Translations under genes and position numbers: made by a program | Origin: Rotaria socialis | Taxonomy: Eukaryota | Direction of reading: 5' to 3' | Assembly (NCBI GenBank): GCA_905331295.1 | Contig: CAJNYD010000044.1 | Span: 124,001 to 188,000 of the forward strand | Length of the DNA stretch: 64,000 bases | Notes under the pieces: generated by a model | What the model was told of the DNA's origin: nothing | Database searches by the model: none | Seen by the model: only the letters and a program-made list of their open reading frames with translations | Shown here: positions 3,348-57,334 of the stretch, in pieces | How the letters are laid out: the number at the start of each line of letters is the position of its first letter | How positions within the stretch are numbered: the first letter of the stretch is position 1

Positions 3348-5898
3348 ATGGTCGATCGCATCGAAACAAGGTAAATATTATATAGATATGTTTAGAATTC
3401 AATTATTTTCAAAAAATGTCCTGTTCAATTTTTATAGATCATATGCAAACAAGATTGATCTTCGCCTTCAAACATTAATTACATCTCCGTATGCACAACA
3501 ACAATTGCAACTTGCTGGTTTGGTATATAAAATAACCTGATAAAATTTTTAGTTCATTTTTTTCTTGCAGAACTTCAAAAATTATCTTCATACATTTCTT
3601 TTCCAAATATCTATCAAATGTTTTTGCTTCAATATTTAGATAAATCATCGTGGACAAATAGTTGCATCCAATGCCTATATTCGTAGTCTAGCACAACGAA
3701 AATGTCAACAACAAGATCATGAAGCAATAGCGAAAGATATTCTTCTACAGTTTGTTATTTTAATGATTCATTTCTAGTGCTTATTAATATAGATTTTAGA
3801 ACATTAAAAATTGATCAAAATAATCGACGAGGTCGTCGCCATCAGTTTGAAATTGCTACACGACGTGCTGTAAATAGTAATTTTGACGTGAGCTCAATGA
3901 AATCTGCAATATCATGAAGATCGTGCTTTTCTTTTCGTTCATAAAGGCTATTAATAAACACTATCGAAAGCAATCATATGGACGTAAAAAATCCCGTGAA
4001 AAAAGTGCTCCTGGCTATCTTTCGGTGAGAATCAAATATGATTCATTATCACACTCTAATAGACTTATTTCAGAAAGCAGAAAATGAGGTTAAACAACGT
4101 ACACGAGTGACTTCTGCTCACAAAAGAATATTAAAAACAGAGAACGATACAGAAGAATCTTCTGATCAACAAAATCGTATTGAATCAGTAAGTCGCTGAT
4201 ATTATTCGATTTTTATTCAAGGCCGCTTTTCTTCAGTTGGATAAATCATATGTACTTTCTTTGGAACGTCAAACGTGCAATTTAAATATGTCTTATGGAT
4301 TAAAGACGACTAACAAAACTAAACAAATTAACCGTGATGAAATTGTTGTCATGCAACAGCACAGCACTGGCGAAAATGTAGTTGTTTTCAGAGGACTTTT
4401 AAACGAAGGCGGTAACTATATCAATTACACCAATTATTAGACATTGTTTCGTTTTGTCTATAGAATCCTTTTCATTTAAATCACAACGTCGACCAACATC
4501 TCCACTTTCATTGGCTTTCTATGCTAAAGGATTTATTGACAGTTTGGTGAATGATTGTTGTGAATTTAAATATGGTAGAAGAAATCAACACATCAATGAA
4601 CATAGTAAATTTTTTGTTGAACGAGTTCGAAAAGCTAGTCCCTGTGAGAAGTAAGTTGAATACTTGTTAGAAAAGACAAAATTACCTTATAAAAACATGA
4701 TAAATTTTACTAGTTGTCGAAGAAAATATATTCAAAGAGAAATAACACCAACTGCTGATGGTGCACCATCGACTACTGTAAGTATAATCTCTATTATGCG
4801 AAATTCAAAGAACTAATCAAATAAACACATAAATATACGATTCAAGTTAAGTGACCTATTTCGGTAATCGTTTATATTTACAATTTATCTACAATAATTT
4901 TCAAAAAAAGAATATTTGTCTACAATAAGGCTTTTTCATTGTACACATCAACTTTTTTTCCATTTAATTTAAGATACCAAAGGAGCATTCTCCAATTGTA
5001 CTTCAATCTTTGTTAATATCAACATCTGAGCCCATAAGTAAAATCAACACATTCATCCAGATAGAAGAAAAAACGATCTATTCTCATATTTTTCTAGTCG
5101 AAAATCCAAAACTTGATTTAGCTGAAAAATCAAATTTAAACTTTAAAGAACATAATGGGAATAAAAAAGTGAACTATCACGTTTTTCTTGAATGTTAACG
5201 ATCTATCGTGTTTTTTTTATAGGCAACAAAATATAGAAAACACCGTGATACTATTAACAGTACTAATGAGAATGGTAAGCACTCATTTAAACGCCTCAAT
5301 TTTATAAATATTTGATCTTTTGTTACAGATGACAAGGATAAAAAGGTTAAGCAACATCAGTAAATGTAATTTTTTATTTTTCTGATTAAAATAGGCAACA
5401 GATGAACAAACGAATAAGCAACAATTTTCCAAAGTTTCTTCTCACCAACAAATAACTAGAGGTAAAAATCGTTCGCATGAAAAATGCTTGCTCTAAACAT
5501 ATTTTTACAGAAAAAGCAGCATCAGTGGACTTTGGTCTTCTAGCGTATACACTTCTTCAAGAAAGAAAGTCACCATTACCAAAACCAAGAATGGCAAAAA
5601 AACCCAGCAATATATCGATTATCAAAGGAAATTCAACCAGAAAAAAGACGCAACTTATACCCAGTAAGTATTTTTTGGGAAACAAATTGGCTTATCAATA
5701 AAAATATTTATCTATATAGAAGAGAACACATCAGCTACGCCATCACAAGGAAAAGAAATTATGCAAGCATGGGTTAACGAAACAGACTATATTCATTGGG
5801 ATCCACACAATTCACCTCTTAGTGCGAGTACAATCGATGCGGACACTCTTTCTCAAACGTCTGTAACGCATGTACAACAACGTATGTTTCCTAGCTAA
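3348..5898 (+). CDS. Multi-exon gene, uncharacterised hydrophilic protein
   Basis: GT-AG exons join into MVDRIETR|SYANKIDLRLQTLITSPYAQQQLQLA|..NHRGQIVASNAYIRSLAQRKCQQQDHE..|AINKHYRKQSYGRKKSREKSAPGYLS|KAENEVKQR.. and end in ..THVQQRMFPS*. No family recognised. Some internal boundaries are uncertain. Confidence 0.6.
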
Positions 5899-19700: not shown

Positions 19701-20307
19701 ATTATGACAGATAGCACCTTCATCACTCCCATCTGGACAATTATGTACTGTATCACATATGCGAGTTTTTTCAATACATTTCCTGCCAGTCGTACATGGC
19801 CAAAATCCCGACTGACATTTTGTTGTACCTAGCATTAGAAATAGACTATTTCAAAGTTCATATATTTAACTGACCACATGAATTTTCATCTTCATTATTA
19901 ACACAATCTTTTGTACCATCACATATTTGTGAAGGCGATAAACATTCAAATACAGGATAAGATTCGTCATGAGTCGTTACACAGGCCAACGATTCAGTTT
20001 CATCTTTTGGACAATAATGACCTACAGAACAATATTCAAGCGCGATCTCTTAGAAACAAAAACAAAACTATACGAACAAACGTTTTGACCATGTTCATTA
20101 ACGCAATCATGATAATCGACGCAAAATTCCTCAATATCTACACAATGTGTTTTATTTAAACAAGGTACTAAACTATCAGGACAACCGAAGTGTCCTTGTG
20201 AAACTACAAAAGAAAAGAATAGTTTTTCAAAAAAATCAATTCTTTTATTTACCGTTTACAATCATCAAAAGTATAACAAATAAAAAAGCAGTCCATCTGA
20301 CAATCAT
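16754..20307 (-). CDS. LDL-receptor/LRP-like type I membrane protein
   Basis: Signal peptide MIVRWTAFLFVILLMIVN. About five LDLa repeats (CDTVHNCPDGSDE, CDGISHCSDGYDE, CDGTKDCVNNEDE). EGF and Ca-EGF (DFDEC..CLNTDGDFNCSCPSGF). Degenerate propeller region, Thr-rich stalk, TM helix MLFLFIIIGIFAGVMAFIV. Start could be 20337 and stop could be 16811. Confidence 0.85.
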
Positions 20308-21312
20308 TTCTTGCGAAACTAAAATTAAAAATGCCATTGAATATTTTCATTTGTTCTTGTATTGATTATCAAGTATGTTTTACAATCTAAAAACAACCAA
20401 CCAATATGCGTGTTATTTCATTCCTCTAATATACATGATAAAATTTTTCTATCGAAACATACTATTTGCATTTTGTCAGATCCGATAATTTGACTTATTA
20501 TATGATTGATTGTATTGTATCAGCTATTTTTTGCAAGGTGGCCATCATAAAATGTGTGAATAAAATGTCTAAAATGAAAAAAAGGTAATGCTAATGTTCG
20601 ATATCTCATTAATTTCTATGATGAAGTATAATGTGTTGCAAAAACTACTTTGATGTTTATTTTATTATGTACACAGTTACAATGATGAAAATAGTAAAGA
20701 AGAAAAATAACAAATGTGATGTCACTACATACCTCCTACTGTACAACTACAGCTCATCAAAGGATAAGGTTAACCGGCGTGATTATGAAATACTGCTATA
20801 AAGTTATCAATATCGACCTTGCCTTTTACTGTTCATGATTAGAACAACAAAAGTTGATAAATGTCTTTCGGTGCACATGTATGAAGAAATATATTTTATT
20901 TCATATAGGTACGTGCATACTGAACAGTTATCTACATTTACAACTATTACGCATGTTCTTTATCGTTGAGAACCGATTCACGTTTTAATTAGTTGATTGA
21001 TGGGACGTATTTTGTCTACTGGTTCAGAAAAGAAGACATTTAGCAAAGACTGTTAAATTAAAATTACCCATCTACACTATTAATCATTCGGTTTATTCAT
21101 GCACTCTTTAAAAACGGAAATTCGGCAACTTCACTCGCCATTTTCTTTGCGGACAGCGAAGAAAAGTATTTAAAATAGATATCTAGCAGATAAAAAGATG
21201 TTTCATGCATTTCTACATCAGTTCATTTTCGAAATGAACTCCTTTTAAATTCATTAATCAAACATAGAAATTCGTACACATAAAACAAAAACAATGAACA
21301 TTATTTTTCTGT

Positions 21313-21948
21313 TTATTTTCTTTTTACTTCTACAAGTGTTGTTTTTATATCAAGAATTTTGTCAACAACATCACATTCAATTATTTCAAGTAGAACAGGT
21401 TGTCCTAATTTGAATACAAAATTATGATAAACAGGTGGTATTGTATCACGATGAAATGATGCATTGAAACGACTGTGAATTAGACAAGCTAAAAAATACT
21501 CAATAGAAAATCTTTTTTTTTGTCAAAATGAAGAAACCTTTACCTATATGTTTCTTTCCAAGTTTTGATACAATCGCGCGAACGCGTCTCCCACGCTCAG
21601 GTACAAATAACACAAAACTAAGTTTCACAGGCACCCATAATGTTGGTTCATCTTGAAATGTTTGTCCGACATTGGACAATAGATGAATCTTACCAATGGC
21701 CAGTAGAAAACCATTTAATCTTGAAAATAATTAAATTGTAATAAAAAAAAAATTTTTACATAATATTTAAAAACGTACTTTTTTGTTATTTCATTTGAAC
21801 TTTCTTCAAGTATTCGTTTAATACTTGATTTTACTTTTCCTATTTGACTTGGTGGTACTGGCACAAGAACTTTTTCACATTTATGTTCTAAACATGATTC
21901 TTTATCATTAATAAGCGGAAGAATGTCACTAATTTTACATAAATTCAT
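21313..21948 (-). CDS. POLR1F: RNA polymerase I subunit RPA43
   Basis: Three exons: LINDKESCL..VPPSQIGKVKSSIKRIL..|LNGFLLAIGKIHLL..DEPTLWVPVKLSFVLFVPERGRRVRAIVSKLGKKHI|ACLIHSRFNASF, matching RPA43 (FVIFCP..G....G.V.K....HIGCLVHGCFNASI). Confidence 0.85.
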
Positions 21949-22071
21949 TTCGTAGATTTTATCTATAAAAGAAACTTCAATAAGAATATTTTATTTTTTC
22001 AGCAAAGTTTCAGAAGAGAAAAGACGATGAAATTTATTTAACAATAGAAATTCTCGTTTATTTATTTTTCT

Positions 22072-22347
22072 TTAATGTGTTGTTACACGTTGAAAACCAA
22101 TGAGTTTATCCGGATCTTGATAAAGCCAGGCATCGGCTGATAATGATTGAATATTTTCGCGTATTTTTTGTAAATGTTGAGTATGTAATTCTTTTTCTGT
22201 TTCTGAGCGATAAAATTGTGTTGCATTTTCTAATTCAATGGTATTTAATATCATCGCATTATTATTCGTTGTAGTCGTTGTTGCCATTGTTGGCTCGACC
22301 GTAGGAACATGTGGAGATTGAAATAATGCTTTGCGACTGGCATCCAT
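22072..22347 (-). CDS. ANAPC16: Anaphase-promoting complex subunit 16
   Basis: MDASRKALFQ...HTQHLQKIRENIQSLSADAWLYQDPDKLIGF matches APC16 RKALF and LEADEWRFKPIEQLLGF. The ATG directly follows a tttttcAG acceptor. Confidence 0.8.
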   Translation of the reverse strand: MDASRKALFQSPHVPTVEPTMATTTTTNNNAMILNTIELENATQFYRSETEKELHTQHLQKIRENIQSLSADAWLYQDPDKLIGFQRVTTH

Positions 22348-23214
22348 CTGAAAAATCAAGAAATATTATTTTGAAAAATAAACGATTCAAAAGCCCCTTG
22401 TTCTTGCAAAGTCCAGTAAACTTTTTAAGAATAGATAAATAGTGACTTTACAATTCATTCTTTAGATTTACAAAGATCAACCGGTATAATATAATGGTTC
22501 AAAATGTGTAAATACCTTTCCTTTCGTTATGTCTAATGAGTCATGACGGCTTAGTGAAACCAATGAACAATCAATAGATGTCCTCCTAACATAATCAAAT
22601 TATATTTATTCCTACAGTTGATCAAATACTTTAAGAACTCATGATTTCAAACAAATAGTCTAACAGCATCAAAATACTGAAGAGTTTTTTTTTAGAAAAT
22701 TCAATGATATATATTTATATTCGACATCGAATTTGAAAAGAAAAACCGCAAGTAAGACAAGGCTCGTCAATAGAGAATAATACTTCTGGGAAAGAGAGCA
22801 TCGTGTATTGGATGAAGCTGCATCAATTATGCATCTTTCTACTTTTTCAGTGAAAACCTTTTTGAAAAAATATTTAGGGAACGATTATTTTGATGGATGA
22901 ATACAACATTTGATTAAATCTTAAGCAGTATAACTCGTCAACACGTTGAGAAACTCCATGTATTGCGTAAAATAAGGAAGAATCACTTTAGTTCCACGTT
23001 TAATCTGTTTAGATAATAGAACGTATCTGAATCATTTCCTCATTTACATCTTAGTTCAATTCAATAAAATGTTTCTTTTATCGTTAAATCTCAAAAACAA
23101 AACCATTGGTCTTACTAGTAGAATAATCTGTCTAACAACAGAAAAAAAAACGAACGAACAATAAAAAAAACAAAAAAACGATAAACACAAGAGAAAGTTC
23201 AGTTTCGAGAATGT

Positions 23215-23980
23215 TCAAGCAAGAATTTTCGACCGTTCACGATATGCAGTCCACCAAATAAGTCCAAATACGATAACAGCAAAAAATTCACTCGGCAGCC
23301 ATGGACCATAACTTGCTCCCTATAAATAAATAAATTTCTTAAAAATCACAACATTTTTTGTCTCATACCGGATGGCTTAATTCAACTTGACCAAATGGTT
23401 TAACTGCTTTGATAGCATCATCCGTTCGAGCCTACGAATAGATATTCACGATTTTAATCGATTTATTATTCTACAAATAACTTACTTTACGTAAAGTTGA
23501 ATAAGCTTCATCATCATATAATTTAACTATTGTAGAACCTTTCGCTAAGTGTTTATGAGTTGAAGTCGCTACACTAACCTAAAAAATGAATAAAGAAGGC
23601 TGATTTCTGTTTTGTTTTATCGATTCGCTTCATACATAATATTTTCCAGGCGATGAAACTGATTGAGCACAAGGAATAACATGTCCATTAATATCAGCAT
23701 ACAGAGTGCCTGGCTAAAAAAGATGTAGGACTTGTTGTTTTGAAAACGAAAAAATAATCACAAACTTGTTTTCCATTTTTGCATTTAACACTTATTTCAA
23801 GTTGAGCAGCTGATTCAGCTGTAAGACGAGCATCTTTCGTTGAATATGAATTAACTGTGAATTGTGGAGATTCACAATTTTCACCTGAAACAAAATAAAT
23901 TATCGAATAAATAAAGTAACCTTCTTTTTACCTCTGGCAACGGTGAATAGCACGAAAACGGCAAAAATAATTGACTTCAT
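23215..23980 (-). CDS. SSR4: Translocon-associated protein subunit delta (TRAP-delta)
   Basis: Six exons: signal peptide, ENCESP..SYSTKDA, LYADINGH, LYDDEAYSTLRKA, HPGASYGPWLPSEFFAVIVFGLIWWTAYRERSKILA*. Confidence 0.93.
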
Positions 23981-24314
23981 GGAAAAATATTGAATCAGCT
24001 TGTGAAAAAATACCAGCTACTGTTTGTTTGATGTGGCAAATATCGATGATAAAGCACATACAGTATTTCATTGGAGCATGTCTACTTATCAAAAATCAAA
24101 ATCGATTTTTACGATAGATGGCTTTGATTTGATCTCTTGTATTTTATTTGAAAAAAAATAATTAAAAAAGAAAGATTATTTTATTTAATTTTTAGTTGAA
24201 TCACAAGTGAGGACGGAGAAATAATTTTGAATGATCGATTTGCATGAACCAATCGATGATTTCCACAATAGAAGTACCTTTGCTTTCTATTTTTTTGTAC
24301 ATGACAGTCTAATA

Positions 24315-25496
24315 ATGTCGAACATGAGAATCGTTATTCAATGTTCAATTTTTATCTTTTTATTCCATTTTGCATCAAGTAACAAAGATGCTGTCACATG
24401 TGGCTCATCATTTAAATTGGTTAATCAGCAATCTGGAGATCGACTTCATTCGCATGATGTTAAATATGGTTCCGGCAGTGGGCAACAAGTAAGTTATTAT
24501 TATTATTTCAATTAGTTTAGCTTCAAAAATTTGCCATTTAGTCTGTTACTGGTACACCTAATGCTGATGATGTGAATAGTTATTGGCAAGTTCGTGGTGA
24601 TATAAGAAGTGATTGTGAACGAGGGTAAATAATAATTTCACAAGATTTCTTTTATTTGCTAACTAAGTTCTTTTTATATTTAATTCAGAGCTCCGATCAA
24701 ATGTGATACTGTCATACGTTTATATCATGTTACTACTCATCGAAATTTACATAGTCACAATTATCCTTCGCCATTATCAAACAATCAAGAAGTATCAGCT
24801 TATGGCGAAGAGGGTGTTGGAGACGAAGGCGATCGATGGAAAGCTGTTTGCACCACTAAAAATGATTATTGGTTAAGAAAAGATCCTATTCGATTACAAC
24901 ATGTTGTTACTGGAAAGTAAGAAAACATAGATTCAAATTTTAGTTATAACTGTTCCTCCTAAATTCATAACGACGGTTTTCTATCAGCTGCGGAGAATAG
25001 ATAAAAGTGAAAAGTTTTCCTCACGCATAGCTAAGTTCAATGCACAACGTGGAACAATACCTTTCGATTGATGAACTAAAACATCTTTCCCAATTCTCTT
25101 TCTGAGTGTACTGCGATTGGTTTCGATATTGAATACTATTTTACTACTCGAACACTCGGATATCCCCTTGAGGAAACTCTGTTCTACTATAATACTATTC
25201 GTAATTATTAGATATTTAAATCACAGATATCACCGGTTAGGCTTCGAGAAAGGATGGATAGATTTAAAATTCTAAAGTATTTGTTTAGATATCTTCATTT
25301 GAGTGGTGATACATATGGTCGACCCATTCATGGTCAAAAAGAAATCAGTTGTTATGCATATGCCAATAGTCAAAATCTTTGGAAAGTTGATGCCGGTGTT
25401 TATGTACGACAATCATCGGAACCATTGTCATCAACACGTGATGAGAACTACAACGCACAATCATCAAAAAATGATCATTTCGATGATGAACTTTGA
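24315..25496 (+). CDS. SDF2: Stromal cell-derived factor 2 (MIR-domain ER protein)
   Basis: VTCGSSFKL..RLHSHDVKYGSGSGQQ|SVTG..DDVNSYW, RNLHSHNYPSPLSNNQEVSAYGEEGVGDEGD, YGRPIHGQKEI. Ends in DDEL*. Confidence 0.95.
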
Positions 25497-25908
25497 ATAA
25501 AAACTGCTTAACTATTTGATAGGTTCTGTCGTTTTTCTTTCTCTCAGATCATGATGGTGTGATGACGCTTTTTCTATGTTTTGGTTTTGTTAATTCTTAG
25601 CTTTATTTATTTTTCAGTTTGACATAAAAGAACAAGATGAAAAAGAAGGATCGATGTGAAACAGCGAGCGCAAGCATCTCTTCTTTTAAATAGATACTTG
25701 ATGTGTTTGTTTTTCTCAATCGTTAACATGTTTGATAACATTCCTCGATGTTGAAACCTAGAATTATGGTTTCATTAAGATATTATCTATGTATTTGATG
25801 CACTTTAACTGATAAATCTTGTTGTATTTCCTTTTATGTTAAACAAATAAACAAGCATGAAGTCATTGACGTGGTTTTAATTGTTCTTCTATGTTTAAAA
25901 GTATAAAT

Positions 25909-25968
25909 GTGCCATCCATTGAGTGATTCAAGGGGAGGCAGCGGCTCCTGATGGATTCTAGAATCCAC
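25909..25968 (+). mobile_element. Decayed transposon end, related to 32650-32751 in inverted orientation
   Basis: TGCCAT..TTCAAGGGG..GCGGCT.CTG..TGGATT is shared with the reverse complement of 32700-32751. Confidence 0.45.
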
Positions 25969-26376
25969 TATGATACATTTTAATTAATGATTTTATATCA
26001 ATATTTTAAACAATTTGCAGTTGCTAAAGTGAACAACGAGACTCGTATATGTAGAATCTATGACTTTGATCAAGTTTTGAAAAAATTACGAAGGTGACCA
26101 TGCATTTTTTCACAGATTTAAATGCTTAGAAAAAAAAACTTGCAGATTTTATTGTACACAAAAAGAGAAGAACCGAAGAATTCATTTTTCATATTATTCT
26201 ATGACTGAGAATGTGTTACAATAGCCCTGAAAAAATTATTTAGCCTTTTTGTAATATAGACGATACTGTTGAAAAGAAGAATATTATTTTGTTTCTACCG
26301 ATGACTTTGCCTGTGTATTAACTAACTCTTCATATTCAATTGCAAAGTTCTAACAAGTACATCAATATGACTTGGT

Positions 26377-55839: not shown

Positions 55840-56703
55840 TTGCATTGAAATTCGTTTCACTTTTAATTCCAAGTAGTTTCTTAACAGCTGTCGAACGTAT
55901 ATCAATTATTGTATCAACATAACCAATTTCTTTCAAATATCTAATAAGAGGAAAAAAGAGAAAGCCATTTTGTTTTGGAATTGAATTTACTAAATAACAT
56001 ACTGCCGAAGTAATTGACGGCCTTGTTTAAATGATACGCTATTATCACCATAACCTAAATTTGCACCATCTTTATTTTCATCTAAAACAAAATCAATTAA
56101 ATTCAACAAAATTTCTAAAACAAAAAATTTTACCATCATCATAATGTGGTGCATCATTCGATGTTGATTTATGATCTTCTACTGGAGCGTTTTCACTTCC
56201 ATATTTTAGTTTATTGAATTTTAATCTAAATAATTAAAATTACATGAGACAATGTGTATGTTTTTTCTCTCATGAGGCGAATATATATCCTTTGAGAATT
56301 ATCAAACAGAAAAAGAGTCGTCATTATTCTTAATTATTTTTCTTTTAGAATTTTTTACCTTTCTTGTTTTAATGCATATTCAAGCATTTTAATGCGTCTA
56401 ACAAGTGCATTCTTTAGATTTTCTTGTCCTTGTCGTTCACCTTGTAGAAAAGCAATACGTGCCTATAAAAAAAGCAAAATGAAAAATATGCGTTTCCAAG
56501 TGTAGATTTTATTTTACTTGAAATTCAGCTCGTTCCGTTTCCCACTGTTGTCGTTCTATTTCAAATCTAGTCCATTCGTGTTGAAGAAAATGAAGGATAC
56601 CAGGCACTGTATATAATGGACGTTGGGCATCGACATTGGCCATTGCCGATGCTGCTGCTTGAGAATCTGTCTGATAGGATATTTGCGTTTCACTACCGTC
56701 CAT
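53432..56703 (-). CDS. STRN: Striatin (STRIPAK scaffold, WD40 C-terminus)
   Basis: YTVPGILHFLQHEWTRFEIERQQWETERAEFQ|ARIAFLQGERQGQENLK..LVRRIKMLEYALKQER, GRQLLRQYLKEIGY, RKTWNVKYVLRSHLDG, GHTDAVW, ..ASVGADSIAKIYA*. Confidence 0.97.
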
Positions 56704-56802
56704 TCGATTTCATATCGATGTAGGAAAAAAAACGAAAAAAGGAAAAAAATAAATCTGAAATAATAAAAATGATAAACAATATTTAGCTTTACAACAATTT
56801 AT

Positions 56803-57334
56803 TTAACATTGAAAACTTCGATAGGTTTGAATTTCATCAACAATTTTCTGACATTCATCATCATCTAGTTTACTATCTAAAGATGGAATTAATGTTTTAG
56901 CTTCCACGGCTTGTTGTGGACAAAGATTAGCAAGTAATGCAGCTTCAAATTTATGTAAACCCGACGATGGATTTGTTGATCCCATGCCATTAGGTTGATC
57001 TTTTGGAAAAAGTAAATTTCGAACAGCACCGATGGCTTCTTTTGTTTTAAATTTACTGAATCGTTCACAATAAGCAACTGTATCATTAAATGCTTCTGAT
57101 GATGTTATTTCATCATCGTCATCATCAAGACCATTCGCATTGGAATTTTGCTGTCGACGTTGCTCAAGCATAAGTAATACTTCTGATATCATCATTGGTT
57201 CAGCTTTATCGAATTCTTTTGGAAATTTAAGTTGTGCAGCATCTTCATCATCCTAGTTAATTAAAAGAATGACATGAAACATAGGATCTTTCTTTTTAAT
57301 GAGCTGATAGACATACTTGATTTGCAAGTGCCAT
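56803..57334 (-). CDS. POLR2D: RNA polymerase II subunit RPB4
   Basis: Two exons: MALANQ|DDEDAAQLKFPKEFDKAEPMMISEVLLMLEQR..RFSKFK..LHKFEAALLANLCP...EAKTLIPSL..IQTYRSFQC*. Confidence 0.96.

Follow-up and report, generated by a model that had tools for sequence, protein, structure and literature searches.

A probable spliced-leader-resolved operon of SSR4, ANAPC16 and POLR1F in the bdelloid rotifer Rotaria socialis

Introduction

In operons resolved by spliced-leader (SL) trans-splicing, the first gene is described as lacking a leader and the downstream genes as carrying one (PMC1488885). For operons of the tunicate Ciona intestinalis, the same source places the upstream poly(A) site at the G of the acceptor AG or, in a minority of cases, 2–6 nt earlier. 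Coupling or competition of 3′-end formation and trans-splicing has been proposed for Ciona and for the SL1-type operons of Caenorhabditis elegans. Where one SL serves single genes and operons alike, the leader alone is no proof of an operon (PMC7986045); by analogy, this caution would extend to rotifers, for which one SL of 23 nt has been described (PMC3795323, Table 1). The nearest relatives with reported operons are the chaetognaths, likewise Gnathifera (PMC12460157). As at the locus described here, these operons contain housekeeping genes and use no operon-specific leader, but they were defined by a gene distance under 250 bp together with SL reads, and the SL sequences are different ones. 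Rotifer operons are unreported according to a 2021 paper, and our literature search, which left subscription journals and the supplements of genome papers mostly outside, found no paper on them.

Here we analyze a stretch of 64,000 nt from Rotaria socialis (the window; all coordinates are positions in it) in which SSR4, ANAPC16 and POLR1F, all on the minus strand, probably form one SL-resolved operon. Such an operon would apparently be new for the phylum, within a mechanism class that is already known: judged by the descriptions in PMC1488885, PMC9258526 and PMC12582326, the locus appears to work in the manner of tunicate operons with a single SL and of Caenorhabditis operons of the SL1 type.

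Results

Gene layout, identities and expression

The window has a GC content of 30% and contains an assembly gap of 100 N at 1267–1366. SSR4, ANAPC16 and POLR1F are arranged head to tail, and an SDF2-like gene on the plus strand faces SSR4. The SSR4 (TRAP-delta) coding sequence (23215–23980) comprises six exons and five introns of 47–57 nt and encodes 168 amino acids, with a Pfam TRAP-delta match at E 2.5e-9 on a single exon. The ANAPC16-like gene (22072–22347) is one exon encoding 91 amino acids. POLR1F (RPA43; coding sequence 21313–21948) has three exons and encodes 173 amino acids; within its 3′ UTR (21208–21312), T-tail loose ends of contigs in run X1 mark poly(A) addition at 21297 and at 21208. 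The seven introns of SSR4 and POLR1F measure 47–59 nt. The SDF2-like gene, which encodes a MIR domain (Pfam E 2.6e-9), occupies 24324–25700, where 25700 is the edge of the examined stretch, and starts at an ATG at 24324 or 24315; one of its introns is 372 nt long, and its three GT–AG joints were found in all four RNA runs X1–X4. The SDF2 and SSR4 start codons lie 343 nt apart, head to head. A bidirectional promoter would fit into the interval 24045–24290, between the furthest RNA 5′ ends on either side (24044 for SSR4 contigs, 24291 for SDF2). A motif containing ATTGG at 24255–24246 is conserved in the alignment of the window with two of the metagenome loci described below (L002 and L006).

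The ANAPC16-like protein is 97% identical to a protein of Rotaria sp. Silwood1 and 64% identical to one of Didymodactylos, which marks the DNA as bdelloid. By Pfam, 4 of the 22 family members match ANAPC16, the best at E 0.05, below the cut-off, and a comparison with PDB sequences gave no match. A profile of the 22 rotifer ANAPC16 sequences retrieved 19 further animal or unnamed proteins (best E 4.8e-8), five of them with PF17256, which was confirmed for P0087. For POLR1F, the Rotaria homolog P0026 matches RPA43 of human (E 2.4e-6) and rpa43 of fission yeast (0.0023). The R. socialis protein has 173 residues against 338 in the human PDB chain; the N-terminal SHS2 part is kept and the OB part is short.

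RNA evidence came from the assembled contigs of eight of the ten runs matching the stretch; X8 and X9 (shares 0.07 and 0.06) were left out. Results for X5, X6, X7 and X10 refer to the loose ends and contig pieces listed for these runs. Contigs show presence, not absence, and the empty cover of 22350–23000 and 21965–22047 carries no weight. X1 is closest to the window, with 0–3 differences per contig piece among those listed, and X5 represents a close relative that is about 97–98% alike. Runs X1–X4 all show the joints of the five SSR4 introns and of the two POLR1F introns, and the POLR1F pair appears in six of eight runs overall; the underlying RNAs are therefore spliced transcripts. ANAPC16 contigs came from seven of eight runs. 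All three genes are real and expressed.

Partial matches with coding-like loose ends reveal a further SSR4 transcript, diverged from the first, at 23214–23819 in X5, X6 and X10, and a second SDF2 transcript at 24447–24794 in X2–X4. Bdelloid genomes are degenerate tetraploids in which paralogs are expected. The second transcripts may be such paralogs, or they may come from other species in the runs.

One spliced leader on both downstream genes

At the ANAPC16 acceptor (AG, 22349–22348), which directly abuts the start codon at 22347, SL loose ends of 20 nt (X1) and 21 nt (X5) were found, that is, in two of eight runs. At the POLR1F acceptor (AG, 21964–21963), 14 nt before the start codon and 109 nt behind the ANAPC16 stop, X5 shows a 19-nt SL loose end, in one of eight runs and in the close relative; a leader here, at 21962, had been anticipated from the sequence-only reading of this DNA. 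When reversed, all three loose ends equal the published rotifer SL up to its last AG, which in the alignment is supplied by the genomic acceptor. The original rotifer SL paper is reportedly that of Pouchkina-Stantcheva and Tunnacliffe in 2005. Both downstream genes thus carry the identical sequence, that of the only SL known from rotifers, in each of the three leader reads. In the window, the best match to the leader covers 16 of its 23 positions and no copy was found; the leader is therefore not encoded nearby.

Several contig ends fall at or near the same acceptors. The ANAPC16 contigs of X2 and X3 begin at 22348. For POLR1F, the alignment of the X3 contig stops at 21964 with 7 letters left over, and contigs start at 21962 (X6), 21961 (X2) and 21954 (X1). 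Among the loose ends listed for the eight runs, none places a leader on the 5′ end of SSR4. The locus shows two of the marks by which an SL-resolved operon is recognized, a close co-oriented array and an SL on the downstream cistrons.

The ANAPC16–POLR1F junction

The ANAPC16 stop codon ends at 22072 and the POLR1F start codon lies at 21948, leaving a gap of 123 nt. The 3′ UTR or junction segment (21965–22071) contains four AATAAA motifs, at 22066, 22062, 22038 and 21995, of which the copy at 21995–21990 is conserved. An ANAPC16 contig of X5 (409 nt) runs from the SL at 22349 to 21965 and ends one base before the POLR1F AG. Other ANAPC16 contigs end at 22048 (X1) and 22053 (X2 and X7), in three studies and shortly behind the AATAAA copies at 22066 and 22062, or at 22077 (X3) and 22079 (X6). 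No poly(A) tail was seen on ANAPC16 contigs in the eight runs; since the X5 contig has no visible tail, we infer the poly(A) nucleotide of the distal end. The X5 end would fit a zero-spacer junction of the Ciona or SL1 type, and the ends of X1, X2 and X7 give a weak hint of a proximal 3′ end near 22050, which would leave a U-rich spacer of about 85 nt. With either 3′ end, the POLR1F acceptor needs a precursor that starts in or upstream of ANAPC16; the argument is the same as for Ciona.

We compared the window with 11 loci (L001–L011) obtained from 337 pattern matches in a metagenome scan. They represent seven distinct sequences: L006–L008 share one spacer, and L003 and L004 nearly do so. POLR1F follows ANAPC16 in 10 of the 11 loci, and the eleventh ends 25 nt past the stop codon. 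The gap between the two genes is 86–119 nt in all ten informative loci, and 86–123 nt in 11 of 11 sequences if the window is included, while its letters have diverged. The earlier proposal of an operon-sized junction here is thus borne out across bdelloids. In all ten loci, a pyrimidine-rich AG stands 7–20 nt before the POLR1F start codon. An AATAAA ends 14–40 nt before this AG in the window and in nine of ten loci (six of seven distinct ones), L011 having AATAGA instead; a proximal AATAAA, 80–98 nt before the AG, is found in the window and in four of the seven distinct loci. Of 415 acceptor-like sites in the window, 26 have the same AATAAA–AG spacing, but the 14–40-nt range was set with the data in view and the loci are related; the spacing is therefore a sign of conservation and does not yield a p-value.

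These observations bear on the reading that no operon exists and that three tightly packed genes have separate promoters, with a POLR1F promoter and outron inside ANAPC16 and the SL merely trimming outrons. Contigs bridging SSR4 and ANAPC16, or ANAPC16 and POLR1F, were found in none of the eight runs (assembled contigs, with some records filtered out), the SL is also placed on single genes in tunicates (PMC7986045) and the genome is compact, with introns of 47–59 nt. Against this reading, only 109 nt separate the POLR1F acceptor from the ANAPC16 stop, ANAPC16 RNA extends up to one base before that acceptor, the distance between the genes stays at 86–123 nt in 11 of 11 sequences despite diverged letters, and the promoter would need to sit within a 276-nt coding exon in every lineage. 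We therefore regard separate promoters for all three genes as very unlikely, and co-transcription of ANAPC16 and POLR1F as an operon as highly probable.

The second junction resembles several described systems. As in Ciona, functionally unrelated housekeeping genes are grouped and one SL is placed on the downstream cistrons; the end of the ANAPC16 contig in X5 lies 2 nt ahead of the junction, as compared with upstream 3′ ends at the junction or 2–6 nt before it in Ciona (PMC1488885). Unlike in Ciona, where 16 of 18 cases have no AATAAA within 40 nt, the rotifer AATAAA is conserved and ends 25 nt before the AG; also, the Ciona cases were backed by dicistronic cDNAs and by 3′ ends next to poly(A) (PMC1488885), neither of which was seen in the rotifer. 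The SL1-type operons of C. elegans and C. briggsae (Williams et al. 1999, as described in PMC1488885 and PMC9258526) have no or almost no intercistronic sequence, as the distal ANAPC16 end would imply for the rotifer, and are similar in having a canonical upstream AATAAA and a general SL. They differ in that rotifers have one described SL (PMC3795323) and no SL1/SL2 split, and in that both phylum and SL sequence are unrelated. If ANAPC16 ended near 22050, the remaining U-rich stretch of about 85 nt would instead be comparable to the spacers of SL2-type nematode operons (about 100 nt) and of Oikopleura (23–30 nt), as given in PMC1488885 and PMC7986045; unlike SL2-type nematode operons, the rotifer locus has no dedicated second leader and uses the same SL on both downstream genes.

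The SSR4 3′ end and a proposed mini-exon

The sequence-only reading proposed that the large gap between SSR4 and ANAPC16 hides an operon-sized spacer, because the SL would be added at 23131 to a 16-nt mini-exon, which would then be cis-spliced from 23115 to 22348 to form the ANAPC16 5′ UTR. All motifs and distances on which that reading was built are present (the 123-nt gap, the four AATAAA motifs, the AGs, the U tract and the GTAAGA). The SSR4 stop codon ends at 23215, an AG at 23133–23132 follows 81 nt on, and GTAAGA stands at 23115. Seven regions of the window contain 42 T or more in a 65-nt stretch, and the U-rich tract, with 46 of 65, is the richest of them.

The RNA gives these motifs a different role. 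SSR4 contigs pass the U tract, the AG and the GTAAGA, reaching 23081 (X1), 23090 (X2), 23097 (X4) and 23054 (X10), and one X1 contig has a loose end of T10 at 23055; a GATAAA lies 22 nt ahead of this site, and no run of A follows it in the genome. Because SSR4 contigs run through them, all three elements belong to the SSR4 3′ UTR (23055–23214, minus strand), which extends to a poly(A) site at 23055 and hence beyond 23100. A 3′ UTR passing 23100 is one half of what the sequence-only reading named as evidence against itself, the other half being a separate ANAPC16 start site. A joint from 23116 to 22347 appears in none of the eight runs among the joints listed, and none of the loose ends listed for these runs carries an SL at 23131 or 23127. 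Instead, the SL is joined directly at 22348 in X1 and X5, in agreement with the X2 and X3 contigs that begin at 22348. The donor fares no better in relatives: X5 keeps the AG of the proposed mini-exon while its donor letters differ, and the GTAAGA is missing from the aligned spacers of L002, L004 and L005. The intron required, of 767 nt, would be about 14 times as long as the 47–59 nt of the seven SSR4 and POLR1F introns, SDF2 having one of 372 nt. Since rare forms are lost from contigs, the mini-exon is conceivable in a minor isoform. As the main route we consider it extremely improbable and reject it; in the main isoform, the mini-exon is almost certainly unused. The gap between SSR4 and ANAPC16 is real, with poly(A) site and acceptor 706 nt apart.

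A long spacer between SSR4 and ANAPC16

From the SSR4 stop to the ANAPC16 start codon, the window has 867 nt, as compared with 140 nt in L002, 146 nt in L004 and 227 nt in L005. Measured from the 3′-end motif to the acceptor, the distance is 713 nt in the window versus 31 nt (L003 and L004), 36 nt (L002) and 112 nt (L005). The spacer proper (22350–23054), counted as 706 nt from the poly(A) site to the acceptor G, means that no zero-spacer junction exists here. Since the relatives have short spacers, the 867-nt gap is probably best read as a lineage-specific expansion or as the long end of an elastic spacer. The 706 nt could be a long intercistronic region, or an outron with its own promoter.

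We found no sign that the spacer contains a transposon or a hidden gene, and this candidate was dropped. Terminal repeats in the 706 nt were limited to chance-level pairs, Rfam gave no match at E 1 in 20500–26000, nothing in the window or the 11 loci was similar to the spacer at better than E 0.016 over 22 nt, and the longest stop-to-stop frame is 71 amino acids. Contigs of X2 and X4 show short partial matches at 22610 and 22685 that continue into unrelated sequence.

DNA upstream of ANAPC16 is available in eight loci, and SSR4 is present in three of them (L002, L004 and L005). L001 has no SSR4 within its 148 nt upstream, which is too little DNA. L006–L008 (one sequence, approximately 3677–4001) lack SSR4, and about 320 nt lie between SDF2 and the ANAPC16 gene that it faces; the promoter motifs found ahead of SSR4 in the window stand directly before ANAPC16, an arrangement that may indirectly favor one promoter for the unit. 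A protein tree of ANAPC16 gave no supported branch (0 of 12) on SSR4 loss versus gain in L006–L008. In L003 (1–410), the last 55 nt or so before the ANAPC16 start codon are common with L004 and are preceded by about 400 nt of more GC-rich DNA unrelated to SSR4, which may be an insertion, a rearrangement or a chimeric contig.

The alternative to be weighed at this junction is a dicistronic unit, in which ANAPC16 and POLR1F are driven in this species by a promoter of their own in the 706-nt spacer (acting as outron), or by this promoter and the upstream one together in a hybrid operon, with SSR4 separate. The spacer is 5–20 times longer than in four relatives and long enough for a promoter, it contains one TGACTCA motif (at 22543; a weak point), no contig crosses it in any of the eight runs, SSR4 can be missing from the locus, as in L006–L008, and the spacer tolerates foreign DNA, as seen in the roughly 400 nt of L003 unrelated to SSR4. 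What weighs against a promoter there is that only 31–112 nt separate the SSR4 3′-end motif from the acceptor in L002, L004 and L005, leaving little room for promoter plus outron, and that comparison of the spacer with the SDF2/SSR4 promoter revealed no similarity above chance (best E 0.2). We judge a separate dicistronic unit to be unlikely, if clearly less so than three separate promoters. Because SSR4 and ANAPC16 are only 140, 146 and 227 nt apart in three relatives, SSR4 is probably part of the same unit as ANAPC16 and POLR1F in R. socialis; the three-gene unit of the sequence-only reading thus probably stands, while its explanation of the 867-nt gap by a mini-exon falls.

An elastic first junction has parallels. 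The SL1-type operons may sit within longer operons that have ordinary spacers, and one such junction measures 1 bp in C. briggsae against more than 400 bp in C. elegans (PMC1488885, PMC9258526), which resembles the situation between SSR4 and ANAPC16. The relatives' spacers at this junction, about 25–105 nt by position of the 3′-end motif, are similar to those of SL2-type nematode and Oikopleura operons (PMC1488885, PMC7986045). In contrast to the Ciona operons without intercistronic DNA (PMC1488885), the first junction of the rotifer locus has a 706-nt spacer.

Discussion

The three-gene operon that we favor can be pictured as follows. Pol II would start near 24044 at the bidirectional SDF2/SSR4 promoter. 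SSR4 is cis-spliced and polyadenylated at 23055, as seen in RNA, with no leader observed. The polymerase would then continue across a spacer that presumably grew to 706 nt in this lineage. The 23-nt SL is trans-spliced at 22348, again as seen in RNA, so that leader and ANAPC16 start codon abut with no mini-exon. Addition of the same SL at 21963, found in the close relative and hinted at in X3, would give POLR1F a 14-nt 5′ UTR. The ANAPC16 3′ end would lie 0–90 nt ahead of the POLR1F acceptor, at the AG according to one contig and perhaps also at about 22050. Use of the distal end would place the POLR1F pyrimidine tract inside the ANAPC16 3′ UTR; 3′-end formation and trans-splicing would therefore compete or be coupled.

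A broader, tentative and on balance doubtful proposal is that SL operons are conserved in bdelloids and combine an elastic first junction (about 25–706 nt, with SSR4 as a removable module behind the bidirectional promoter) with a length-locked second junction at which ANAPC16 has two 3′ ends. If this is true, the proximal end at about 22050 would spare the POLR1F acceptor, and both mRNAs could be made from one precursor; with the distal end at the AG, the two mRNAs would compete, and the choice of poly(A) site would determine how much of an APC/C subunit is made relative to a Pol I subunit.

The junctions described here are defined at the nucleotide level and backed by RNA in public data, which makes the question of rotifer operons testable genome-wide with existing tools. 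Together with the chaetognaths, the locus is relevant to the question of ancestral operons in Gnathifera. Its second junction, probably a zero-spacer one with an AATAAA and in a third phylum, also bears on how 3′-end formation and trans-splicing share a site.

The same 64 kb contain a candidate second operon, recognized by gene order. POLR2D/RPB4 (57334–56803, minus strand; Pfam PF03874, E 2e-26) has its stop at 56803, and a striatin gene on the same strand (PF08232, E 1.3e-12) begins at 56703, 99 nt behind POLR2D, across a U-rich gap with an AG near 56755. As predicted from sequence, this pair suggests that operons may be common in the R. socialis genome. Downstream of POLR1F, conserved blocks were detected at 20808–20008 on the minus strand (blastn to L001, L004, L009 and L010), and beyond them lies a gene, conceivably a fourth cistron, with LDL-receptor-class-A repeats (Pfam E 8.7e-11) and a possible start codon at 20307.
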